Source: Promethearchaeota archaeon (GTDB lineage: Archaea > Asgardarchaeota > Lokiarchaeia > Sigyniarchaeales > SOKP01). Taken from it: DNA of 20,616 bases. Numbering within the stretch: position 1 is the first letter of the stretch; the number at the start of each line of letters is the position of its first letter. Under the pieces are notes generated by a model. That model was not told where the DNA came from. It did not search any database and was given only the letters and a program-made list of their open reading frames with translations. The position numbers were made by a program, and so were the translations under genes. Positions 1 to 13,071 of the stretch are shown here, piece after piece. The DNA is taken from contig JBHLNT010000068.1 of NCBI GenBank assembly GCA_048941265.1, positions 1 through 20,616 of the forward strand. The letters run 5' to 3'.

Positions 1-829
1 CGAAACCATTAAAAATTGTTTCAGATTGGGAATGAGAATCATCAAAGATCACATGTCGATGTAAACGAATAGCATTTCCCAATATTGTTTCAAAATTTGA
101 TTCTATATAAGTGAAATCACATCCCATTACAATTAAATGACCAGAACCTATAATTTTATGAAATATAACAGGGTCTGTCCCATCAGTAACCACAAATTTG
201 GTTTCTGTAGTATCAAAACTACAAACTGTATGAGAAGGAAACGTCCAGCTTGAACTCACCCCTCTCGCAAGTGCATCATTATTATTGACTAACCACGCAG
301 TACCAGTACTAAGGTAAGATGTAGTTGCAGAAAATGTAAACAATCCGGATTCGTTACCTATGTGAAATGTCTCATCATCATTATCTAACATAATAACAAT
401 TCCTCCATTAGTGATAAAGTTTGTAAGAGTAGTTGCCCATGCATTTCCTACTGCTATCATATCTGCACTCACACTAAATTCTTGTTCAACAATTAAAAGG
501 ATGTCGTGACCGGGTAATTTAGAATTTAATTCGGTATAATCCGTAAGATTCTCGTAGTAATAATCTGTTCCATAAGAATTATCAATCGCTTGCATAGTAT
601 TGACAAATTCATTTTCAAGATCAGCATATTCAATGTATACTAAAATAGATACAGGTAAAATTTGGTGGTCTTTATTTAATGGAGAATCTGAATCTTGAAT
701 ATCTTGGCAAATATTCGTCAAATTTCCACTATTTTCTACTTTTGCATTCATTGAGCCATTGGATAAGGAACTTATCATCAATATTATGCATATTAGAAAA
801 AAGAGTGAACATTTTTTAGTTTTTCTCAT
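1..829 (-). CDS. Secreted/cell-surface protein with class I glutamine amidotransferase-like (GIFT/DUF4350-like) domain(s); 3' end runs off the window
   Basis: Not in the ORF track; translated by hand from ATG at 829, open to the window edge (276 codons): MRKTKKCSLFFLICIILMISSLSNG (signal peptide)...LPGHDILLIVEQE...LTNFITNGGIVIML...IGSGHLIVMGCD...HVIFDDSHSQ. These are flavodoxin/GATase-like motifs, and 'VIFDDSH' looks like the start of a second such domain. Confidence 0.8.
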   Translation of the reverse strand, partial: MRKTKKCSLFFLICIILMISSLSNGSMNAKVENSGNLTNICQDIQDSDSPLNKDHQILPVSILVYIEYADLENEFVNTMQAIDNSYGTDYYYENLTDYTELNSKLPGHDILLIVEQEFSVSADMIAVGNAWATTLTNFITNGGIVIMLDNDDETFHIGNESGLFTFSATTSYLSTGTAWLVNNNDALARGVSSSWTFPSHTVCSFDTTETKFVVTDGTDPVIFHKIIGSGHLIVMGCDFTYIESNFETILGNAIRLHRHVIFDDSHSQSETIFNGF

Positions 830-1152
830 TTTTTATTAAACTCTTATTTTTTTATTTTAAAATCTTGAATAAATTTTTTCAGTTTAGATTTTCAATTAAA
901 ATTTTTTTTGTTAGATTCTATATAAACAAACCAAATTTAACGCTATATAAAACCATCTATAAAAAAACTGATCCTACAATCTTCTAACAAATATGCGATC
1001 TTATATTAAAACGAGAAAATATCATAGTACGAATTAATTAAGCTAAGAAATATAACTTTAAAATTATTTTAATTTCAAATACTAATTCATCCTTAGTTGC
1101 TATTTTTCTCATTAAATTTTTAATTTTTGAATTATTTTAAATATTGATTGTT

Positions 1153-2628
1153 ATGGCAAAAAAGAAAAATGAAGCTCCTATTACGGGTATTACTGTTTCA
1201 AAAGATGAGGATTTTTCTGCGTGGTACACTGAAATTATTGAAAAGGCTGATCTGGCAGATATCAGATATAATGTGAAAGGATTTGTGTGCTATAGACCTT
1301 GGGCAACTATTTCGATAAAAAAGATGTATAGAAAATACGAGGAGCTTCTAGAAAAAAATGGGCATTTACCATTAACAATGCCTTCTTTAATTCCCGAGAG
1401 CAATCTTATGTTGGAAGCAGACCATGTGGAGGGATTTGCCCCTGAAGTTTTTTGGGTTACTGAAGCAGGAAGTTCTGGTCCTTTAAGCGAAAAACTAGCG
1501 CTGCGTCCAACAAGTGAAACAGCACTATATCCAATGTATAGTCTTTGGATTCAGAGTTATAAAGATTTACCCTTCAAAAGATATCAGTCGTGTCAGGTAT
1601 GGCGATATGAAGGGAAAATGACACGACCTTTTTTTAGAGGGAGGGAATTTCATTGGATTGAAGCCCACGATGTTTTTGCCACTGAAGAGGGTGCCATGGC
1701 TCAAGTTCATGAAGATATGGAGATGACCTATCAAATGCTTCAAGATGAATTTTGTATTCCAATTATCTTTTTTCAAAGACCTAAATGGGATAAATTCGCC
1801 GGCAGTGTCAATACTTACGCTGCGGATGCTCTTATGGGTTCAGGTAAGGTTCTACAATTGCCTTCAACACATTATCTTGGTCAAAATTTCTCAAAACCTT
1901 TTAATGTTAAATTTGTTGATACTGACGGAAAGGAAAAATATGGATATCAGACCTGCTATGGACCTGCCATAAGTAGAATTTATGGAGCGATGATAGCGTA
2001 CTTAGGAGATGATAAGGGTCTAATTTTGCCTTTTGATTTAGCCCCAATTCAAATTGTCATAATTCCAATACTAATAAAGGGAAAAGAAAAGATTGTTTTA
2101 GACAAATGTAAGAAAATTTATGAGAAAATGAGAGAAAAATACCTCATAAAACTAGATGATTCGGAAGATTCTCCCGGCAGTAAATTTTATTACTGGGAAA
2201 TGAAAGGAATACCTTTTAGAATTGAGATTGGTCCAAGAGATATTCAAAAGAAGCAAGAAGTAGTAGTTAAAAGACATGATGGCAAAAAATATTTCGTAAG
2301 CGATAATGAATTAGAAGAAAAGATTAAGCAACTTGCTGAGAATTATACAAACGAATTAAAAGAGAAAAAATTACTGGATTTTGATGAACAAATTGAAATT
2401 TGCTATGAAACTGACGCTGCAAAAGAAGCCTTAGATAAGGGTAAAATTGTATGTTGTGGATTTTGTTCTATTGATATGAAATCTTATCATTGTGCCGAAG
2501 TTGTAGAAAAAGAAATAGGTGGTTTTGTAAGAGGAAAAAGAGTTGATGAGGAAAAACACGAGTTTGCTAGCTGTTTGATATGTGGTGAACCAGCTACTTG
2601 TACCGTTTATATCGCAAAAAGCTATTAA
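1153..2628 (+). CDS. proS: Proline--tRNA ligase, archaeal/eukaryotic type
   Basis: FSAWYTEIIEKADLAD, HVEGFAPEVFWVT, LALRPTSET, motif 2 VWRYEGKMTRPFFRGREF, STHYLGQNFSKPF, anticodon-binding domain (WEMKGIPFRIEIGPRD) and C-terminal Zn domain ending CLICGEPA...IAKSY. ATG 1153 preferred over TTG 1144. Confidence 0.98.
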   Translation: MAKKKNEAPITGITVSKDEDFSAWYTEIIEKADLADIRYNVKGFVCYRPWATISIKKMYRKYEELLEKNGHLPLTMPSLIPESNLMLEADHVEGFAPEVFWVTEAGSSGPLSEKLALRPTSETALYPMYSLWIQSYKDLPFKRYQSCQVWRYEGKMTRPFFRGREFHWIEAHDVFATEEGAMAQVHEDMEMTYQMLQDEFCIPIIFFQRPKWDKFAGSVNTYAADALMGSGKVLQLPSTHYLGQNFSKPFNVKFVDTDGKEKYGYQTCYGPAISRIYGAMIAYLGDDKGLILPFDLAPIQIVIIPILIKGKEKIVLDKCKKIYEKMREKYLIKLDDSEDSPGSKFYYWEMKGIPFRIEIGPRDIQKKQEVVVKRHDGKKYFVSDNELEEKIKQLAENYTNELKEKKLLDFDEQIEICYETDAAKEALDKGKIVCCGFCSIDMKSYHCAEVVEKEIGGFVRGKRVDEEKHEFASCLICGEPATCTVYIAKSY

Positions 2629-2842: not shown

Positions 2843-5800
2843 TTATGTGGTATTTTGAATTTCTCGTTTTGGCAAGATTCTTTTTCTAAGGATAAATATA
2901 GTAACTGCACCCGCACCAATTGCAGATACTACTCCGATTGCGATTAAAGCAATTATGGGAATAGCAGGTTCCTCAGCTTTTTTGGCTTTTCCACCTCCTC
3001 CGCCTCCTCCACCTCCTCCAGAAGATCCAGTTGGAATTTTTAAGCATAGATAACAGCAGACATATTTGGTAAAGTTGATATTTTCCGCATTATCTTTCAG
3101 CCAGATATATAACGTATGATTTCCACCTCCTGATACCTTAATTCCGGTTATTTGAGTGATATCTGCTCCAGCAATATATATTCCATCCGTATCAGAAACA
3201 GGAGGCGAATCTAATTTGTAATGTACACCAGCTATACCTGATAAATCTATTGGATTTACCCATGTTAAATTGAACAAATTCACAGTCGTCCATCCATTTG
3301 GTTGGACATTTAATTCGATGGGGGCATCAATTGTATTATCAACTTTAATTACATTAGCAACTAATTGAGTGCCCAATTTGCCGACCGTATTTACAGTTTG
3401 AAATCGTACGGTGTTCAAAGTCTCTGATTCTTGATTGAAAGGTACATCTAATACTCTTGCATAAATCCACCCTGTATCTCCATGTTCTGCGGGATCCGTA
3501 CAAGCTCCATCCTCATATACTCCATCAACACTTACCCAGTTAGTTGGTTCTGCCTCACCCATGGTTGAATAAGCATACTTTACTTCTGTTATGTTCACAC
3601 CATTACCTCCCATATAAAATTTACTTATTACCGTGGGATTTATATCATTTATCCAATCGAGTGGAGTTTCAATCCAGAATAAAGATTCATTGTCTATTTT
3701 TATATTTGTTGCGGTTGATTGATAACCCTGATTATTTGCCAAATCCGTAGCTCGAAATCTTATTGTGTTCAAAGATTCGGATTCTTGATTGAAAGGTACA
3801 TTTAACACTTGAGCATAGATCCACCCCGTATCTCCGTTTTCCGCGGGATTCGTACAAATTCCATCCTTATATACTCCATCAACAGCTATCCAATTATTTG
3901 GTTCTGCCTCACCCATGGTTGAGTAAGCATATTCTACTGTTGAAACATTTACTCCTGATTTTGCAGTATAAAAACTCCCGATTACCATCGGAGTTAAATC
4001 ACTAACCCAATCAGTAGGTGAATAAATTGAAAAGCCATTTGGAGCAGCGAAATCAATTATTACATTTACACTTTGGCAATTTGAAATCCAGCTTTTTCCT
4101 CTCCCATTACTAGATACGATAACATAATAGTAATTCGCATCCACAGATATAATATCTTGATAATGACTATTAGCCCCAACTGTTGCAATTGGGGTTTTTC
4201 CAGTCATCGTGGTAATAGGCGCAGTAGCTCTATAGATGTCGTAATTTATAGCACCAACCACGTCGTTCCAATCTAAATCAATTATCCCATCATAATCTGG
4301 ATTTGGCAAGATAGAGTTTAATTCGGGCGCTTCCAATGCATACCACGGTATCATTATCTTAATTACTGCTAATCCTCGAACGTCGTCTGCTATATAAGCA
4401 TAATCTCCTGAGATATAAACATCCTTCGCCTCAAATAGTGATTCCTCATAAACAGGAGCTCCAGGATTGTTGGGATCAGAAACGTCGATAACTGCCAGAC
4501 CACTTTTTGTATCTGCCACATAAGCATAGTCTCCTGATACAAATACGCCATTAGCATAATCATCTGTATCAACATGTTGTGGTATAAGAGTATGAGGTGG
4601 ATCATAAATAAACAGAATAGCAAGTCCATAATCGCCATCGGCTACATAAGCATTATCTCCTGAGATATATATATCTGAAGCATAATCATAATAATTACTA
4701 TATTCATAGGTGGGTGTGCCAGGGTGGATTGGATCGGAAATATCTATAACTGCAATCCCCTCAGGACCATCTGCAATATAAGCATAGTCTCCTTCCACCC
4801 ATATACCAATAGCTTGACCTGTTGTATCTACAGAGACCACTGTATATGGATGGGTTGGATCGGAAATATTGACGACCGCTAAACCATTAGTTCTATCTGC
4901 CACGTAAGCATAATCTCCGGAGATAAACACTCCATAAGCATCCCCTGGAGTATCTGCATAATATGTAGGACCGGGATGAGTTGGATCGGATATATCAATG
5001 ACTGCTAGACCACTTTGACGAACTGCTACATATGCATAGTCTCCTGATACATATACACCCATGGTTTCTATAGATGGGATTGTATATATAGGTGGGCCTG
5101 GATTTGAAGGGTTAGAAATATCAATAACTGCTAATCCTATATAATCTGCCACATATGCATAATCTCCAGCAACAAATACGCGACTAGCAAAATTATTAGT
5201 ATCTTCATAAACAACATGATAAGGAGTTATTATCTCTCCAATTTTTATAATCGCCAATTGCTTATTTGAAACATCACCATTTGCTACATAAGCGAAATTT
5301 CCGGAAACAAAGACACCAAAAGCTTTCTCAATCTCATCAACATATATAGCAGGACCAGGATTTAATGGATTAGAGATATCAATAATGGCTAAACCGCTAT
5401 AATAACACGTCAAATAGGCATAATCGCCCGAAATAAATATATCGTATGTGTAGCAATTTGTATATTCATGGATAGGTGAGCCTGGATTAGTTGGATCAGA
5501 AATATCAATGACTGCTAAACCTCTCAAAGAATCTGCTACATAAGCATAATCCCCGGATATAAATACTCCTTGAGCATCATTTAAAGCTACATAAATAGGT
5601 TCTCCCGGGTGTGTCGGATCGGAAATATCTATAACCGCAAGACCTGCACTTCTATCAGCAACATAAGCATAATCCCCTTCTATATATACGTCATATGATA
5701 ATCCCGCCGTATTTAAATAAATTGGAGTCCCAGGATGTCTCGGATCCGAAATGTCAATGATCGCCAACCCACTGCCATAATTAGCCACATAGGCATAATC

Positions 5801-6166
5801 TCCAGCAATAAATACATCCCAAGCTTGATCAGTTAATGGAACATTGCTCACTTCTATGGGAAGGGTTGGATCAGAAATATCAATGATTATGAGTTGTTTA
5901 TAGTAATCTGAAACATAAGCATAATCTCCACAGACACACACACCAGTAATGTATCCACAGAGCGTACACCATATTGCACCGGGATGAGTCGGATCGGAAA
6001 TGTCAACAATCATAAGTCCATAATTAAAATCAGCTATATATACATAATCTCCTGATACGTATGTATTTTGTGCAACACCCCCTAAATTTTTATAATATAT
6101 ATCAGAAATGTTTAGTTCTTCTTGAAAAGTTACTGTATTAAACGAATGAGTGGCATTTGATGACAT
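2843..6166 (-). CDS. Large membrane-anchored surface protein: 14 LVIVD repeats, FN3/Ig-like domains, poly-Gly linker, C-terminal TM anchor
   Basis: 14 copies of (V/I)xGDYAYVADxxxGLAVIDISDP; FN3-like LDWNDVVGAINYDIYR...YYYVIV; two tandem 118-aa repeats; GSS-G10; TM IPIIALIAIGVVSAIGAGAVTIFIL followed by RKR. The true N-terminus probably extends to about 6265-6268 (see findings). Confidence 0.92.
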   Translation of the reverse strand: MSSNATHSFNTVTFQEELNISDIYYKNLGGVAQNTYVSGDYVYIADFNYGLMIVDISDPTHPGAIWCTLCGYITGVCVCGDYAYVSDYYKQLIIIDISDPTLPIEVSNVPLTDQAWDVFIAGDYAYVANYGSGLAIIDISDPRHPGTPIYLNTAGLSYDVYIEGDYAYVADRSAGLAVIDISDPTHPGEPIYVALNDAQGVFISGDYAYVADSLRGLAVIDISDPTNPGSPIHEYTNCYTYDIFISGDYAYLTCYYSGLAIIDISNPLNPGPAIYVDEIEKAFGVFVSGNFAYVANGDVSNKQLAIIKIGEIITPYHVVYEDTNNFASRVFVAGDYAYVADYIGLAVIDISNPSNPGPPIYTIPSIETMGVYVSGDYAYVAVRQSGLAVIDISDPTHPGPTYYADTPGDAYGVFISGDYAYVADRTNGLAVVNISDPTHPYTVVSVDTTGQAIGIWVEGDYAYIADGPEGIAVIDISDPIHPGTPTYEYSNYYDYASDIYISGDNAYVADGDYGLAILFIYDPPHTLIPQHVDTDDYANGVFVSGDYAYVADTKSGLAVIDVSDPNNPGAPVYEESLFEAKDVYISGDYAYIADDVRGLAVIKIMIPWYALEAPELNSILPNPDYDGIIDLDWNDVVGAINYDIYRATAPITTMTGKTPIATVGANSHYQDIISVDANYYYVIVSSNGRGKSWISNCQSVNVIIDFAAPNGFSIYSPTDWVSDLTPMVIGSFYTAKSGVNVSTVEYAYSTMGEAEPNNWIAVDGVYKDGICTNPAENGDTGWIYAQVLNVPFNQESESLNTIRFRATDLANNQGYQSTATNIKIDNESLFWIETPLDWINDINPTVISKFYMGGNGVNITEVKYAYSTMGEAEPTNWVSVDGVYEDGACTDPAEHGDTGWIYARVLDVPFNQESETLNTVRFQTVNTVGKLGTQLVANVIKVDNTIDAPIELNVQPNGWTTVNLFNLTWVNPIDLSGIAGVHYKLDSPPVSDTDGIYIAGADITQITGIKVSGGGNHTLYIWLKDNAENINFTKYVCCYLCLKIPTGSSGGGGGGGGGGKAKKAEEPAIPIIALIAIGVVSAIGAGAVTIFILRKRILPKREIQNTT
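3330..4035 (-). repeat. Intragenic tandem duplication of a 118-aa (354-nt) Ig-like domain
   Basis: ATTCTTGATTGAAAGGTACAT at 3427 and 3781; GGTTCTGCCTCACCCATGGTTGA at 3546 and 3900 (offset 354 in both cases). Protein YAYSTMGEAEPxNW...GDTGWIYA...VPFNQESE occurs twice. Outer boundaries are approximate. Confidence 0.9.
4345..6085 (-). repeat. 14 tandem LVIVD repeats (~42 aa each), arranged 7+7
   Basis: Counted in the translation. Repeats 7 and 14 both end in IKI rather than (I/V)DISxP. Boundaries are approximate. Confidence 0.88.
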
Positions 6167-6383
6167 ATCAAGATAGCTAAATCTGCTATAAGGTAAAAAA
6201 GCGAATGCATATCCAAAAAGTATAAAGATTAGGATAATTAATGCTTTAACTTTTTTTGTTTTTAATATTAACCCCTTCTTCTTCCACGTTATTATTTTCA
6301 GTCTATTACTTCTAATTTCTTCCTTAATCTAGAACATCTCCTTTTAAAATATAATTTTAATTAAGTTTCTTACTAATTATCGT

Positions 6384-6412
6384 ATATATAAACCCATAAG
6401 GACTGATTTTTT
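6384..6412 (-). promoter_or_regulatory. 29-bp conserved element, copy 1 (minus strand AAAAAATCAGTCCTTATGGGTTTATATAT; TATA box plus upstream site)
   Basis: Identical to 7696-7724 and 9127-9155; lies upstream of the LVIVD gene and ends in TTTATATA pointing into it. Confidence 0.8.
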
Positions 6413-6737
6413 GCACATTTTAAAAGTGAGAAAAATTAAAGGTATGAGAAGAAATCTAAGAAAATCTTATTAAAATTAAATCTCGTAAGCAATTATAAAA
6501 GCTTTTATGGAAATTAGATTTAAGTTTTTAGCTTTCAACTCTTTATAGACAGAATCACTGATGACCTACTCATTTTTTATATTTTTAGAAAAATATTTTA
6601 TAGAATGCTTTTAATGTGCAAATTCAGATTTAAAATTCAAATACCATTTTTTTCAAGACGTTGTATTTTATATAGAAATAATACTCCAAAGAATAATAAA
6701 ATATGAATAAAAAAAATAGGAATTGATCTTTAAATTT

Positions 6738-7622
6738 TTAGTTGACAGTTGAATTCTCTATTGGCTCATCCATTTCAGGTTTCTCTTTCAAAGTCGGTCT
6801 TTTTTTTCTAACTAATTTAAAGTAGATAACTGTTATTACAATTGCTCCAATTGCGACAATCATACAAATAATATGTAACCAATATTCAATCCAAATAGAA
6901 TTTTGTAAGGAAATTGAAATTACATCATCCAAATCATCGTCATTTACGTAGCTAAGTTTAAAAGATTTAAGAAATCCATCTTTTGTATAGTGTATAGATA
7001 TAAATCTTTTACCAAGATGTCCTTCTCCATCAAATGTTATGCTCATTCCTTCATCTAAAATGATGGGGTAGAAAAGTGATCTCCTATAAGAAGCAGAACC
7101 ATAATGACCTTTCTGTAAATCATCGTTTAATTCATGCATAACTTCTTTCCAATCTACATTATTAGCTACAAATAAAGCACCGTATATTGCGCAACTTTCA
7201 TAGAAGTATAAAATATCTTTATCGCCTTCTACATATTTAAGAATAATTCCTTCTCTGCCTTTATGATCACTTTTCCAATCCTTTTCCTCGTATATTGGCT
7301 CTGATTTCTTTGATTTATATTGATTCCATTTGAATTTAATTCCCTTTTCTCCCCCAAATGTAGTCTCTTCACCAATCCATGTAATCACGGCTTTTATAGA
7401 TTTATAATCTTCATCCCAGGAAAAAGTAGTGGTGTTGATTCCCATATCATGTCCCATTTGTTTATCCACTTCCTCGTCATATTTAATATTCCAGATAAAT
7501 TCATCGTTCTTTTTAATCCCAATATAATCTGCACCTTCAGCTACGGCATTTACACTATTTAGAATTGGAAAAATAATTAATATAGTGGTTATAATTACAT
7601 AATAGACTCGTTTATTTCTCAA
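6738..7622 (-). CDS. Uncharacterised surface protein with N-terminal signal peptide and C-terminal TM anchor
   Basis: TTG start; MRNKRVYYVIITTILIIFPILNSVNA signal; ADYIGIKKNDEFIWNI, a start typical of Asgard surface proteins as I recall them; TM WLHIICMIVAIGAIVITVIYF followed by KLVRKKR. Confidence 0.85.
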   Translation of the reverse strand: MRNKRVYYVIITTILIIFPILNSVNAVAEGADYIGIKKNDEFIWNIKYDEEVDKQMGHDMGINTTTFSWDEDYKSIKAVITWIGEETTFGGEKGIKFKWNQYKSKKSEPIYEEKDWKSDHKGREGIILKYVEGDKDILYFYESCAIYGALFVANNVDWKEVMHELNDDLQKGHYGSASYRRSLFYPIILDEGMSITFDGEGHLGKRFISIHYTKDGFLKSFKLSYVNDDDLDDVISISLQNSIWIEYWLHIICMIVAIGAIVITVIYFKLVRKKRPTLKEKPEMDEPIENSTVN

Positions 7623-7695
7623 ATTTTATCATCTTCTTAAAAAATTATTTTGAAATTTTTAATTATAATTAGGTGGTTTTAAAGATGCAATTTGA

Positions 7696-7724
7696 ATATA
7701 TAAACCCATAAGGACTGATTTTTT
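7696..7724 (-). promoter_or_regulatory. 29-bp conserved element, copy 2
   Basis: ATATATAAACCCATAAGGACTGATTTTTT, ~75 nt upstream of the 7622 start. Confidence 0.8.
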
Positions 7725-7913
7725 ACATGACCTGAAACTTCTAAATTGGATAATTTTAGACTTAGAGTTTCGGAAAATAAGGATTTAAAATATTAAATAA
7801 CTAATATTCAAGCAGATCATCAAAAAATAGCTTCATATGTAAGTCATAATATTAAAATTATCCCCTTATTGAGAGATATTAAAAAATTAAAAAAAAGAAT
7901 AATATCTATTGAA

Positions 7914-8984
7914 TTAAAGATTCGGCTTTTTTCTCTTTACGGAAAACTGTTTTTTACATTGAGGGCAAATTACTCTATCAAACCGTTTAATAGCACCAAT
8001 AATACCCATAACAATACATATAGAAATAACACCAACGAGACTGATAAAAGTAAAACGTGGTGGGACAAATGTATAAATAATTATCCAAAGAATAATCAAT
8101 ATGCATATAGACCCGAATATTGCTCCACCCCACGAAAATACATACTTTTTAGCACCAGTATTTCCACAATAAGGACACACTAATGAAGCATCTATTTGTT
8201 GGGATTGAGAAATAGGTAATTGATTTGAACCTTTTGGAATGGCTTGGATTGCAGGGATTGAAGGTGAAGTTACTTTAGATGCCTCTTTTATTTTTTTTTT
8301 CGCGCTTTTTTTATCCCATATGTAATCTTTATTCAATCGAAGAGCATATTGGTTTATTAGAGTGGCAATTCTACTAACGTCCTTACTACTAAAATCCACA
8401 TCTGTTTCCAGTATGAAATTGGTTACCTGAGTATTCTTCGAAAAAAAGTAACAATTATAGTAGCTCGTAGAAATGGTGGGCCACAATGCCCCATAATCAG
8501 AGCCAACTGAATCAAATGCATGAATAGTATCAAATTGCGACCAATTAATTTGAAATGTAAATTTACGTGGAAGCATAATTTTTATTCCTTGATCTGAGAT
8601 AGAAAATTCGCGAGTTCGGCCATAACTTGATTTCATTCGAAGAGTTCCAATAATTGCGCAAATAAAACAAGGGAACATCACGATGAAAATAAATAAAAAG
8701 GCAAAAAAAAACAGGGGGTGAATGAATAGACCTAATATCATAAATCCTAGTATAACAAACGGAACAAGAATTACGCAACAAATACTGCCATATTTTCTCA
8801 ATGTATAATCTTTAATAATTTCTACTTTATTCGATTCTGAAAGATCTGAAACTCCTGCCGCTTCTAATTTTGTAGCTTCAATTCCTTCTAAGCTCGCACC
8901 ACAAAAACGACAATAAGTATTAGTTCCTTTATTTACATTATTGCAAGAAGAACAAATTTTTTGGGTTTCATTGTTCTCATTCAT
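7914..8984 (-). CDS. Zinc-ribbon membrane protein (N-terminal CxxC..CxxC, 2 TM, PH-like soluble domain, C-terminal LITAF-like CxxC-hydrophobic-CxxC)
   Basis: CSSC...CRFC; TM pair; FSISDQGIKI...FQINWSQF, resembling bacterial PH-like domains; CPYC, then a hydrophobic hairpin, then CPQC. ATG 8984 or GTG 8993. Confidence 0.85.
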   Translation of the reverse strand: MNENNETQKICSSCNNVNKGTNTYCRFCGASLEGIEATKLEAAGVSDLSESNKVEIIKDYTLRKYGSICCVILVPFVILGFMILGLFIHPLFFFAFLFIFIVMFPCFICAIIGTLRMKSSYGRTREFSISDQGIKIMLPRKFTFQINWSQFDTIHAFDSVGSDYGALWPTISTSYYNCYFFSKNTQVTNFILETDVDFSSKDVSRIATLINQYALRLNKDYIWDKKSAKKKIKEASKVTSPSIPAIQAIPKGSNQLPISQSQQIDASLVCPYCGNTGAKKYVFSWGGAIFGSICILIILWIIIYTFVPPRFTFISLVGVISICIVMGIIGAIKRFDRVICPQCKKQFSVKRKKPNL

Positions 8985-9126
8985 ACTTAACACAACAATT
9001 ATTTTTTTTTATTAAAATTATTTTTTAAATGTTTATTTATCACATTATTTTTTCTAAATTCTTTAGAGCTCATAATTGCCTTTCACTTTTTTGTTAAATT
9101 TAGATAATAAATTAGAACACAATTGA

Positions 9127-9155
9127 ATATATAAACCCATAAGGACTGATTTTTT
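9127..9155 (-). promoter_or_regulatory. 29-bp conserved element, copy 3
   Basis: Identical sequence, ~140 nt upstream of the zinc-ribbon gene, in the divergent intergenic region shared with the wHTH gene. Confidence 0.8.
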
Positions 9156-9385
9156 CCAAAACTTAAAATTTGTAAAGCAAATAAGTTTAACCGGAGATTT
9201 CCAGAAGTTTAGGATTAAGAATATAAAAAAGTTAATTTTAGAGTATTTATCAAGGATTTCGCTTTATACATAAATTTTCAAAAATATCTCTTGACAGAAA
9301 TGTAAAGAGAGTATCAATATATTTATACATTTTTATAGAAGTATGTTTTAGTTACACACATGGATAACATTTAGAGGGTAACTTT

Positions 9386-10087
9386 TTGGCACTATCAATT
9401 CTAGGATCAAATGGTTTAGAGCATCCGAGCGTCCAAAAAGTAATTCAGATCGCTGAAGAGATTATTGATCAAAACAAGCCCTTAACCACAGAAATCCTTT
9501 ACAACACCGCAAAAAAAAGGTTAAATTTAACACGCAGAGGCCTTTTATCCATAATTCAACTCTTATTTAATAAAAAAATTTTAGTGGAAGGCTCTAAATA
9601 TACCAGGGACTCTATCCTGCAGAATCACTATAGACGAAAAATCTATAATTTCATTCGTGCTAATTTAGGTGCTCATTTTTCATTGATAAGAAAAGAAGTA
9701 TTATCTGGAGAAGATAAATCCGGGAGTGCGGGTCAATTGATATGGCACCTGGAAATGTTGCTTAAATTTAAATTTATTAAAAAAGTTAAAATCGGAAATT
9801 TTACCTTGTTTCTTCCCAATGATGTCGATGATAAACTTGCTATGCCTCACTTCCTTTTACGGGATGAGGTGAATAAAAAAATTATTACCTTATATATTGA
9901 AAACAAGCAGCTTAATAAGGCGGATATTTATAAATTATTGGAAGAACCGCGCGAGCATATATATTATCGTTTGAATAATTTGATAGATTATGGAATATTA
10001 ACCCCATTAACGCAAGAATCTGAAGATTTAATCTTAGCCTCCGATCAAAAAGAATTAATTAAAAAAATTTTAAGTAAATTGAAATAA
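9386..10087 (+). CDS. Winged helix-turn-helix transcriptional regulator (archaeal ArsR/HVO_0163-like tandem wHTH with an extra N-terminal wHTH-like domain)
   Basis: RRKIYNFIRANLGAHFSLIRKEV...GQLIWHLEMLLKFKFIKK, then LNKADIYKLLEEPREHIYYRLNNLIDYGIL. TTG start with GAGGG upstream. Confidence 0.88.
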   Translation: MALSILGSNGLEHPSVQKVIQIAEEIIDQNKPLTTEILYNTAKKRLNLTRRGLLSIIQLLFNKKILVEGSKYTRDSILQNHYRRKIYNFIRANLGAHFSLIRKEVLSGEDKSGSAGQLIWHLEMLLKFKFIKKVKIGNFTLFLPNDVDDKLAMPHFLLRDEVNKKIITLYIENKQLNKADIYKLLEEPREHIYYRLNNLIDYGILTPLTQESEDLILASDQKELIKKILSKLK

Positions 10088-10160: not shown

Positions 10161-11477
10161 ATGACATTAAATTGGAATCTACTGGTTATACTCATTCTTA
10201 TATCAGGTATTATAGGGATTATAACAGGTTTAATAGCTTTTTTCGCTCCGAGTTCTAAAAAAGTTCATTCCTTAAAATATATTGGATCTACTTTAATCAT
10301 TGGCTCAATTTCCATATTTTTGGATGGAATTTCAATTCTTTTTATGAATGATATAATTGCTTTAATATCTGGTCTTCTTTTTTTTCCATGTGCGGTTTCA
10401 TTATCAATTGGAATTAATTACATCTTAAAAGAAACATATAATTCAATATATTTAATTCTTGTAATTTGTTTAGGAGTTCTTTTGTGTTATTTTGCATTTC
10501 TACCCGGGGCTGTTAAGCCGATCGTGGAAGAAGGATATCTTACCTTTTTTTGGACAGGATTATTTGGGCTGATGACAGATATTCTTACCCTTGTTATTTA
10601 TATCTTACTTTTATATTGGGGTTTTTTAACTTGGAAAAATGCTCCTTTTTTAATTAAAAAAGAAGCTTCACTTTTTTTTATAGGTATTTGTATAATTACT
10701 CTTTTACCTGCTATATTAACATTATTTAGGTCACAATACCATTTAATATTTAATTTATTAAGTTATAGCTGTTTTAGTATTGGGAGTATCATATTTGTGT
10801 ACTCAATCATAAAAGAGCCTAAACTTCTTTATATTTTACCCTTTACTGTCTATCGAATTCTTGTAAAGGATAAAGAGGGATATCCCTTATTTGACCATGA
10901 TTGGTCTGAATCTGATATTAGTGAAGTTATATTTACAGGTTTTATCAACGCCGTCCAGCTTATGAGTGAAGAAGTTATGAATATTGGAGGGTTGGTGGAT
11001 ATCAATTTAGAAGAGGGCATATTAATTTTACATGAATCTCCATTAATCACTGTTGGATTAGTGTCATCTAAATCTTCAAAATTATTAAGAGACACCTTAG
11101 TCAATTTTTCAAAGGATTTTGAAGAATTATTTGAACGACAATTAAAGCAAAAAATCAATGATAAATCCATATATGAGCCCGCATACTTATTAATCGATAA
11201 ATATTTTTTAAATTTTCCTTTTAGGTTAATAAGAAGTAAGAAACATCCCCTCCTATTGTCGGGAAAATCCACGAAAACTCCTTTTGAATTAGAAAGTAAA
11301 TTCAGAGATATATTTTCAGATGAGAAAGAGTTTAAATCTATTATAGCTGAAATTTCGAAGTCTCCCTTAAGTGTGCCTGAAGAGTTCATAAATCTATATG
11401 AAGACCTGAAAAAAGAAATGGATCATTTACCCGAAGATGATATTAAAGAATTAGATAATAGACAGGATAATATTTAA
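10161..11477 (+). CDS. 7-transmembrane protein fused to a C-terminal longin-like domain (paralog 1)
   Basis: Seven hydrophobic segments in aa ~5-218, then VYRILVKDKEGYPLFDHDW...VIFTGFINAVQLMSEEV...LVDINLEEGILILHESPLITVGLVSS...LRDTLVNFSKDFEELF, which fits the beta-beta-alpha-beta-beta-beta-alpha-alpha longin pattern. Confidence 0.85.
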   Translation: MTLNWNLLVILILISGIIGIITGLIAFFAPSSKKVHSLKYIGSTLIIGSISIFLDGISILFMNDIIALISGLLFFPCAVSLSIGINYILKETYNSIYLILVICLGVLLCYFAFLPGAVKPIVEEGYLTFFWTGLFGLMTDILTLVIYILLLYWGFLTWKNAPFLIKKEASLFFIGICIITLLPAILTLFRSQYHLIFNLLSYSCFSIGSIIFVYSIIKEPKLLYILPFTVYRILVKDKEGYPLFDHDWSESDISEVIFTGFINAVQLMSEEVMNIGGLVDINLEEGILILHESPLITVGLVSSKSSKLLRDTLVNFSKDFEELFERQLKQKINDKSIYEPAYLLIDKYFLNFPFRLIRSKKHPLLLSGKSTKTPFELESKFRDIFSDEKEFKSIIAEISKSPLSVPEEFINLYEDLKKEMDHLPEDDIKELDNRQDNI

Positions 11478-11769: not shown

Positions 11770-13071
11770 ATGGCATTAAATTGGAACCCACTCAGCATTC
11801 TTTTTCTGATATCAGGTATTATAATGTTTATCTCAGCATTAACAACATTCATAGCTCCTAAAACAAAAAAACTTCATTCATTAAAATATATTAAATTTGC
11901 ATTAATATTTTTGGCTATAACTATATTTTTTGATGCTTTTACGGTTCTTTTTATGAATAATATGACCATTTATATAATTTCTGTTCTTTTAATTATCCCT
12001 ACTACGATATGTTTTTCAATAGGTATAAATTATACCTTAAAAGAAACGTATCTTTCTATTCATTTAATAGTTATATTATGCTCAGGGATTCTTTTATGCT
12101 TTTTAGCATTTCAACTTGAATCAGGAGAACCAATTGTAGTATATGGAAATTTATCAAACCTTGAATTATTTTGGTTTCTTCAAGAGGCTCTTACTATTTT
12201 TTTGGCAATTATCATTTTCTACTGGGGATTAAAAACTTGGAAAAACGCACCATTTTTAATTAAAAAAGATGCGACAATTTTTTTTTTAGGTATTATTTTA
12301 TCAACAATATTCCCCTCATTAACTGTGTTAATTGAAAATGAAAACTATTTACTTTCTAATATCTTATGTTATACCTTTTTAAACATCGGGATTATAATAT
12401 TTATTTATGCAATCATAAGGGAACCGAAATTGCTTTACATTCTACCATTTACACTGTATCGTATTCTTGTAAAGGATAAATACGGGCATCCTTTATTTGA
12501 TCATGATTGGTCTGACTCTGATATCAGTGAAGAAATGTTTACGGGATTTATCAATGCGGTTCAGGTTATGAGTGAAGAAGTAATGAATATAGGAGATCTG
12601 GTGGACATCAATTTAGAAGAAGGAATGTTGATTATACATGAATCGAAAGCAATTACTGTAGGCTTGGTCACATCTAAATCTTCAAAACTATTAAGAGACA
12701 CTTTAGTCAATTTTTCAGAGGATTTTGAACAACAATTCGAACGACAATTAAAGCAAAAAATCAATGATAGATCCGTATATGAGCCCGCATACTTATTAAT
12801 CGATAAACATTTTTCAAATTTTCCTTTTAGGTTAATAAAAAGTAAGAAACATCCCCTCCTTTTATCTGGAAAATCCGTAAAAATTCCTTATGAATTAGAA
12901 TATAAACTCAGAGAGATATTTTCAGATGAGAAAGAGTATGAATCAATTATTGCAGAAATGGATAAATCTCCTGCAAGTATGTCCGAAGATTTTTTAAATC
13001 TCTATGAAGATCTAAAAAAAGAATTGGATCATTTACCAGATAATAGTGCTAAAGAGCTAAATGATAAATAA
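11770..13071 (+). CDS. 7-transmembrane protein fused to a C-terminal longin-like domain (paralog 2)
   Basis: Collinear with 10161-11477; the cytoplasmic half is highly similar and the TM half is diverged. Confidence 0.85.
   Translation: MALNWNPLSILFLISGIIMFISALTTFIAPKTKKLHSLKYIKFALIFLAITIFFDAFTVLFMNNMTIYIISVLLIIPTTICFSIGINYTLKETYLSIHLIVILCSGILLCFLAFQLESGEPIVVYGNLSNLELFWFLQEALTIFLAIIIFYWGLKTWKNAPFLIKKDATIFFLGIILSTIFPSLTVLIENENYLLSNILCYTFLNIGIIIFIYAIIREPKLLYILPFTLYRILVKDKYGHPLFDHDWSDSDISEEMFTGFINAVQVMSEEVMNIGDLVDINLEEGMLIIHESKAITVGLVTSKSSKLLRDTLVNFSEDFEQQFERQLKQKINDRSVYEPAYLLIDKHFSNFPFRLIKSKKHPLLLSGKSVKIPYELEYKLREIFSDEKEYESIIAEMDKSPASMSEDFLNLYEDLKKELDHLPDNSAKELNDK

Follow-up and report, generated by a model that had tools for sequence, protein, structure and literature searches.

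Archaeal promoters can be helped by proteins that bind just upstream of the B recognition element (BRE) and TATA box, as do the activators or recruiters TFB-RF1 of Pyrococcus furiosus and Ptr2 of Methanocaldococcus jannaschii, which are single-domain winged helix-turn-helix or Lrp-type dimers with dyad or repeated sites. In Sulfolobus acidocaldarius, ArnR and ArnR1 act with ArnR boxes at the archaellum promoter, and ArnR is itself membrane-anchored. Bacterial extracytoplasmic function (ECF) sigma/anti-sigma modules combine group-specific promoter motifs with a membrane partner encoded beside the factor. For Asgard archaea, where to our knowledge almost nothing has been learned about gene regulation, we know of no cis-regulatory code tied to a regulator. 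Here we describe a 29-base element that recurs exactly upstream of three consecutive genes in a 20,616-nt stretch of a Promethearchaeota archaeon (Lokiarchaeia, order Sigyniarchaeales; assembly GCA_048941265.1). This stretch, hereafter the window, is the entire contig JBHLNT010000068.1 (C337 in our numbering). We consider it probable that the element belongs to a composite promoter and operator that is read by a neighbouring regulator and drives genes for membrane and surface proteins.

So read, the locus would share features with each of these systems and depart from all of them. As proposed here, it would resemble TFB-RF1 and Ptr2 in having a specific DNA-binding protein beside a weak BRE/TATA region, helping TBP or TFB from a site close to the TATA box at a fixed distance; unlike in those systems, the candidate is a chain of three winged helices, and the site is long, asymmetric and fused to the TATA box. 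The proposed likeness to ArnR lies in tying the regulation of surface-structure genes to the membrane through a box beside the core promoter, but here the DNA-binding and membrane proteins are separate gene products, and the membrane protein carries a longin/roadblock-like domain. With ECF modules, the locus shares a membrane partner gene adjoining the factor gene and paralogous modules each with its own promoter sequence, an arrangement that insulates parallel pathways. The proteins, however, are unrelated, the transcription machinery is archaeal and the factor is, as far as known, no polymerase subunit. The module is not a member of the TFB-RF1, Ptr2, ArnR or ECF protein families.

The 29-mer occupies positions 6384-6412, 7696-7724 and 9127-9155, in one orientation and with no mismatch, as an initial annotation made from the letters of the window had stated. 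No fourth match appeared in the window with up to three mismatches allowed, and 100 dinucleotide-preserving shuffles of the window contained none. In the whole genome (5,011,874 bases on 361 contigs, 30.5% G+C, 91% complete), only the three window copies matched with up to five substitutions. Immediately left of the element on the plus strand stands TTGA in copies 2 and 3, again as annotated, and TCGT in copy 1. Read on the minus strand, every copy terminates in TTTATATA (6385-6392, 7697-7704 and 9128-9135), the TATA box that the annotation had recognized on the coding strand, and each lies upstream of one minus-strand open reading frame (ORF; 2843-6166, 6738-7622 and 7914-8993, respectively). 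The three downstream genes had been described as non-homologous, which agrees with a BLASTP comparison of the 294- and 359-amino-acid products of the second and third genes (E = 35) and with the presence of LVIVD repeats in the large product of the first gene alone.

Comparison across related genomes identified the 29-mer as the local version of a motif of about 33 bp, TTTGTAaAAAnTnngTCCTnATnnnTTTAtATa, that ends in a TATA box. This consensus derives from 50 independent instances scoring at least 20 bits; about 15 positions are conserved at 90% or more, and TTTA is invariant. Two conserved blocks, TTTGTAaAAA and TCCTnAT (motif positions 1-10 and 16-22), have starts 12 to 13 bp apart, roughly one helical turn, and TTTA follows at position 26. 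Upstream, a non-palindromic site of about 24 bp adjoins the TATA box with no variation in spacing. With a weight matrix made from 16 motif instances, the 5.0-Mb genome yielded six sites at 35-47 bits; everything else scored at most 14 bits, and the top score in the reversed genome sequence was 14.0. Three of the six sites are those of the window: copy 1 (6384-6417, minus strand, 42.2 bits) upstream of the gene for an LVIVD-repeat surface protein, copy 2 (7696-7729, minus strand, 44.8 bits) upstream of the 294-amino-acid gene and copy 3 (9127-9160, minus strand, 45.5 bits) upstream of the gene for a 359-amino-acid zinc-ribbon membrane protein. Copy 3 is directed away from the candidate regulator gene, which starts 231 nt off at 9386. 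Two further sites lie on contig C331 and one on C320. The C331 pair, found by a looser search, has the variant sequence GTAA[A/T]AAATCGTTCCTTGTGCCTTTTTATAT; 1 of 29 positions distinguishes the two C331 copies, 6 to 7 set them apart from the window version, and the skeleton common to both versions is AAATCnnTCCTTnTGnnTTTwTATAT.

On sequence grounds, the geometry of the motif is that of a promoter. All three window copies fit the TATA pattern TTTAWATA, and the spot directly upstream, where a purine-rich BRE would stand, is occupied by TTATGGG. Across 212 generic TTTAWATA contexts of the genome, A accounts for 43-51% at positions -6 to -3, a weak preference with no further consensus. Since generic contexts lack the upstream consensus, the element is not an ordinary BRE, in line with the earlier view that its upstream part is unlike the usual one. 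On the same strand, an ORF of at least 80 amino acids begins 29-180 nt past the TATA box in 35 of 66 motifs (at 29-87 nt in 23 of the 35), compared to 16 of 66 in the opposite direction. A hydrophobic stretch is found at the start of 25 of these 35 motif-following ORFs versus 460 of 2,649 ORFs genome-wide.

A recent local duplication of promoters, or gene conversion among them, might account for the identity of the three copies with no factor beyond TBP and TFB, and local duplication has in fact left traces here. The flank upstream of copy 2 (7725-7808, minus strand) is homologous to that of copy 3 (9156-9239, minus strand; both in repeat family D12), with 65% ungapped identity over 84 nt (z about 6; 20,000 null pairs had a mean of 0.33, a standard deviation of 0.052 and a maximum of 0.548). 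Duplication of a promoter segment about 120 bp long thus gave rise to copies 2 and 3, and the two tandem membrane-partner genes described below likewise testify to local duplication. Yet the core of these two copies is identical at 33 of 33 bases while their flanks have fallen to 65%, and copy 1 retains the same element between flanks at background identity (0.38-0.46). At the divergence rate of the flanks, the chance of an unchanged core is about 0.65^33, by our arithmetic roughly 7e-7. These comparisons indicate that the motif core is under selection, as had been argued from its conservation amid diverging flanks. Duplication without a dedicated factor would also leave unexplained why generic promoters of the genome lack such an upstream sequence and why the motif keeps its spacing across at least five genera. 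Together with the agreement between copies within other loci reported next, this makes it an improbable explanation. Under the favoured reading of a promoter with a regulator-bound operator, selection for the module's own version of the site would have kept the core of copies 2 and 3 identical as the rest of the duplicated segment diverged.

Different loci carry different versions of the motif. Over the ten core columns that vary across the family, identity averaged 0.80 between copies within a locus (30 pairs), as opposed to 0.44 between loci of the same genome (18 pairs) and 0.44 between genomes (2,097 pairs); flank identity within loci was 0.40-0.47. Leaving out this genome and three pairs with similar flanks retained 23 independent pairs with a core identity of 0.76 and unrelated flanks (0.41). 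The 26 within-locus pairs outside this genome averaged 0.765, a value reached in none of 5,000 label shuffles. Because copies within a locus agree in the core despite unrelated flanks, each module keeps its own motif version. Motif versions track the regulator clades in a quickly built tree of 79 regulator proteins.

A scan of the genome and its relatives, as the initial annotation had advised, leaves the exact 29-mer confined to the window, and the genes that follow the wider motif class code mostly for predicted membrane or secreted proteins. Searching 154 genomes of the order for the pattern GTAAAAAATCNNTCCTTATGNNTTTATATA with up to three mismatches returned 68 matches in 28 genomes, compared to a single match for the reversed pattern in the same genomes. 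All 28 belong to one family, f1, in which 27 of the 134 other genomes had matches, versus none of 19 in families f2-f4. Judged by this distribution, the motif is a cis-regulatory signal confined to a single family of Lokiarchaeia. Homologues of the candidate regulator (E <= 1e-15) were present in 88 of 135 f1 genomes. We assembled 60 loci picked by regulator homology alone, outside matrix training and extending up to about 8 kb to each side (862,980 bases in total). They contained 71 weight-matrix matches above 16 bits, with at least one in 45 of 60 loci, as against one motif match in the 5.0 Mb of this genome outside its two modules. The motif is thus enriched beside the gene of the presumed factor across genomes. 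Of 50 matches scoring at least 20 bits, 26 lie just past the membrane-partner gene, nine are directed away from the regulator gene and lie at most 400 nt from its start, like window copy 3, five are upstream of the regulator gene on the same strand, two stand between the two genes and eight are elsewhere. By hand comparison, 28 of 63 pattern matches outside this genome share a contig with a listed regulator homologue at a distance of at most 10 kb. The annotated TATA promoter with a specific upstream site thus fits the comparative evidence, with its fixed TATA spacing, its orientation toward genes and its clustering at a gene for a DNA-binding regulator; which factor reads it we infer from position only.

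The candidate reader is encoded on the plus strand at 9386-10087. Its 233 residues are predicted to form three tandem winged-helix domains (AlphaFold2 predicted local distance difference test score (pLDDT) of 88.7, predicted template modelling score (pTM) of 0.77). Fold searches returned as top matches other tandem winged-helix proteins, namely ESCRT-II Vps22 (E 7.6e-4), TFIIIC tauB, SelB WH2-4 and Pol III C34, with a low whole-chain template modelling score (TM-score), and single domains resembled ArsR/CadC repressors (TM-score 0.65 on target). The best Pfam hit was to the helix-turn-helix family PF24266 (E 4.2e-4, below cut-off). Next to the regulator gene lies partner gene A (10161-11477, plus strand), coding for 438 amino acids with a predicted seven-helix membrane domain and a C-terminal longin/roadblock-like domain (model pLDDT 76.8). 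The alpha/beta domain resembles the longin/roadblock-fold proteins AP-2 sigma, COPZ1 and LAMTOR, and the membrane part is weakly like G-protein-coupled receptors, all with E > 0.001. Partner gene B (11770-13071, plus strand; 433 amino acids) is a tandem paralogue with 65% protein identity to partner A (E = 0). The A and B genes also share DNA repeat families D7, D8 and D11 at 70-80% identity; most related loci have one gene copy. On C331, the arrangement is alike, with a regulator gene (about 235 amino acids, 55% identical to that of the window), then a membrane-partner gene (about 440 amino acids, 50% identical to partner A) and adjoining motif copies. Across loci, the membrane-partner gene follows the regulator gene in 73 of 83 cases, and three of the other ten are at a contig end. 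The source records label homologues of the neighbouring proteins as Lokiarchaeota or Promethearchaeota.

Taken together, the 29-mer would be the core of a composite archaeal promoter, and the motif would mark a small regulon around the regulator/membrane-partner gene pair. In the window, the regulator gene and two partner genes face three promoters with an identical module-specific motif, which would drive three unrelated genes for membrane or surface proteins. A chain of non-identical winged-helix domains would be well matched to a long asymmetric site, hence our choice of the three-winged-helix protein as candidate reader; we picture it binding as an asymmetric monomer, beside or overlapping the position of TFB, and switching all three promoters together. 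Beside the TATA box, the motif has a G-rich stretch in place of the A-rich sequence of generic promoters, and for this reason we lean to a regulator that aids a poor BRE over one that blocks it; activation as opposed to repression is nevertheless a guess. The membrane partner, in turn, may control regulator activity. When structure prediction paired the regulator with the partner's cytoplasmic domain (about residues 225-438), the complex reached a median score of 0.55 over three runs, compared to 0.00 for the best of three controls, which the prediction tool rates as weak support. In its benchmark, 58 of 80 solved complexes passed the mark, as did 2 of 110 mismatched pairs; at scores of 0.60 or less, only 7 of the 80 passed, together with both of those mismatches. 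At least 37% of contacts agreed between runs, and the partner had a pLDDT of at least 73.

Several observations weigh against this assignment, and some of them would be accommodated by a different reader, namely a TFB paralogue (or TBP/TFB pair) recognizing an extended BRE, with the motif defining an alternative class of basal-factor promoter. The conserved blocks extend to the edge of the TATA box with constant spacing, into the region contacted by TFB, and TFB cyclin domains were matched 23 times in the genome, at 12 loci. Of the pattern matches outside this genome, 35 of 63 have no listed regulator homologue at a distance of 10 kb or less. One relative, G006, is 99% complete and has five pattern matches with no regulator homologue at E <= 1e-15; its regulator relatives are distant and on other contigs (profile E 1.9e-21 and 1.5e-19), and it has no close membrane partner (best E 5.5e-7), so that the motif occurs there without a close regulator/membrane-partner pair. 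Among the 60 regulator loci, 15 have no match above 16 bits, and one clade of 12 regulators has none of at least 20 bits. The correspondence of motif versions with regulator clades is also expected from common descent alone. At random places, an ORF followed in 35 of 66 cases as well, a control that is uninformative because random places fall inside genes. Lastly, the first ATG after copies 1, 2 and 3 stands 48, 65 and 55 nt from the TATA box and opens merely 2, 6 and 24 codons, respectively, so the true starts of the three genes are uncertain. Against an alternative TFB, none of the 12 TFB loci is on C337 or C331, and the site reaches 24 bp upstream of the TATA box, far past the 6-7 bp of a BRE. 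Motif versions are moreover specific to the locus and not to the genome (0.44 versus 0.80, as above), a better fit to a locally encoded reader, and the motif is hundreds of times denser around regulator genes than in the genomic background. On balance, we regard a TFB paralogue as an unlikely reader and continue to favour the neighbouring regulator. The TFIIB cyclin-domain loci lie on C5, C18, C27, C63, C65, C193, C212, C247, C288, C300, C311 and C334 and constitute an unusually large TFB family for one archaeon.

The recurrence of one element per gene unit had also suggested a recombination site delimiting single-gene surface cassettes, after the manner of integron attC arrays, with which the window shares a short repeat per unit and a row of unrelated genes. 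Motif-adjacent genes do differ between relatives, as such cassettes would. The attC comparison falters on structure, since the element is no imperfect palindrome. It has no dyad, in keeping with the annotated lack of palindromy, and single-strand free energies of -0.1 to -1.1 kcal/mol (z +1.4 to +1.7 versus shuffles) were equalled or bettered by 191-200 of 200 shuffles. No integrase or recombinase family was found when the 16 window ORFs were scanned against Pfam. Each unit has its own TATA box within the element, which points at the gene; four fixed positions around the gene pair account for 42 of 50 cases in relatives, and the genome has merely six copies. These features leave the cassette proposal of the initial annotation without support, and we consider it very improbable. 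Just as improbable is a further possibility, in which a small mobile element, either a miniature inverted-repeat transposable element (MITE) or an insertion sequence (IS), has landed at a fixed distance from TATA boxes and the invariant part is one of its ends. It would fit the abutment of the invariant sequence on the TATA box, but conservation in copy 1 stops about 24 bp upstream of that box, and copies 2 and 3 continue as diverged 65% homology. The element had no inverted-repeat partner among the 25 longest repeat pairs listed, and no longer repeat family contains it. MITE and IS elements are typified by terminal inverted repeats, many dispersed copies and a conserved body; here, of the six copies in 5 Mb, five are at the two regulator modules. 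A terminator on the plus strand was ruled out, as no plus-strand gene runs into any of the three copies. At the gathering score, Rfam recorded no known RNA family in the window, and the sole match across six searched sources (the window and five related loci) was a tRNA in locus L128.

The genes that the three promoters would drive are varied. Output gene 1 (2843-6166, minus strand) encodes 1,107 amino acids with 13 LVIVD repeats (PF08309, E 3e-133). At the DNA level, at least 12-14 repeats with a period of 126 nt (42 amino acids) and 60-80% mutual identity are discernible at 4380-6060 on the minus strand. The LVIVD reading frame is open upstream of the listed ATG (6166) up to a TAG at 6329-6331 and encodes a Lys-rich and then a hydrophobic, membrane-anchor-like segment; the only in-frame ATG further upstream (6335-6337) is the one 48 nt past the TATA box, with the TAG two codons later. 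Possibilities include a non-canonical start, a nonsense change or an assembly error. Pyrrolysine readthrough of this TAG was rejected as a candidate, with no PylS match above cut-off in the 91%-complete genome. Output gene 2 (6738-7622, minus strand) encodes 294 amino acids without a Pfam family, with a hydrophobic, signal-peptide-like N terminus and a C-terminal hydrophobic membrane anchor; no relative was found in other module loci or elsewhere in the genome. Output gene 3 (7914-8993, minus strand) encodes 359 amino acids with Cys-X2-Cys pairs at both ends and hydrophobic segments (double zinc ribbon PF12773, E 9.7e-4, below cut-off). Also downstream of copy 3 is a 24-codon Lys/Asn-rich ORF (8982-9073, minus strand) that starts 55 nt past the copy 3 TATA box and ends in an A9 run (9002-9010) and TAA; the zinc-ribbon ORF (GTG at 8993 or ATG at 8984) starts a few bases on, with its frame shifted by one base. 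This arrangement could reflect a leader peptide, a homopolymer length error or slippage. In relatives, LVIVD proteins recur in four module loci, and a domain of about 290 amino acids from the 954-amino-acid protein following a C331 motif recurs in at least 11 module loci other than its own. As far as predicted features tell, the outputs are mostly membrane or secreted proteins, and the set differs among loci.

Motif copies elsewhere have further features. The sixth copy in this genome (C320, 6400-6508, minus strand) has no regulator gene beside it and precedes an ORF with a signal-peptide-like start that ends after about 20 codons. Large secreted proteins encoded after the motif in genome G009 have signal peptides similar to this start, and the C320 ORF is probably a decayed output gene. 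On C331 (locus L004), a segment of about 110 nt is repeated at 1170-1280, downstream of one motif copy and overlapping the 3' end of a convergent 169-amino-acid ORF (738-1247, plus strand), and at 6870-6990, upstream of the other copy. By reading of its ORFs, C331 also holds actin-like and small-GTPase-like genes. Loci L059 (G006:C73, 9254-9324) and L060 (G009:C1, 9526-9567; locus coordinates) each have two tandem motif copies 41 nt apart, of the version GTCAAAAATC..., and tblastn (E <= 1) located neither a regulator nor a membrane-partner homologue in the surrounding 10 kb or so; in G006, the pair of copies is followed by a 142-amino-acid ORF. In two other genera, a conserved GGGAGA-N-G[C/T]GAAATCC element lies past the motif copy that stands after the membrane-partner gene, about 45-60 nt from the TATA box, in loci including L098, L099, L102, L107, L109, L124, L126, L127, L128 and L137. 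It often closes as a GGGAG/CTCCC hairpin followed by a T run, mostly with no 60-amino-acid ORF after it, and may be a short RNA or leader; Rfam gave no match for it in five such loci searched. Among metagenome contigs, two short loci (1,770 and 2,410 bases) had close regulator homologues and no motif match above 12 bits in their small flanks. In the full-text literature, judged from search listings, we found neither the motif nor the gene pair described; supplements may list these protein families.

Longin/roadblock-type domains work with GTPases in eukaryotic membrane traffic. Longin domains fused to ESCRT-related domains (PMC11188069) and, in a preprint, to two-component domains (10.1101/2020.10.19.343400) have been mentioned. 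Within Lokiarchaeia, we can tentatively envisage parallel, insulated, kinase-free signalling lines, in each of which a seven-helix longin/roadblock receptor would directly control a three-winged-helix factor with its own TATA-fused promoter code and its own set of surface proteins, although we hold this extension to be less likely than the promoter reading on which it builds. If it is right, such lines would amount to an archaeal analogue of ECF sigma/anti-sigma logic, assembled from components known otherwise from eukaryotic membrane traffic. The motif itself is sharply defined: some 15 of its positions are nearly invariant, its spacing to the TATA box is fixed and the genome has six sites in 5 Mb. 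It also has an adjoining candidate reader and paralogue-specific versions. If its proposed role is true, the archaea most closely related to eukaryotes would have a first described regulon and a first described membrane-to-promoter pathway; the latter would use a longin/roadblock-type domain, and the finding would show how these cells switch their surface-protein repertoire.

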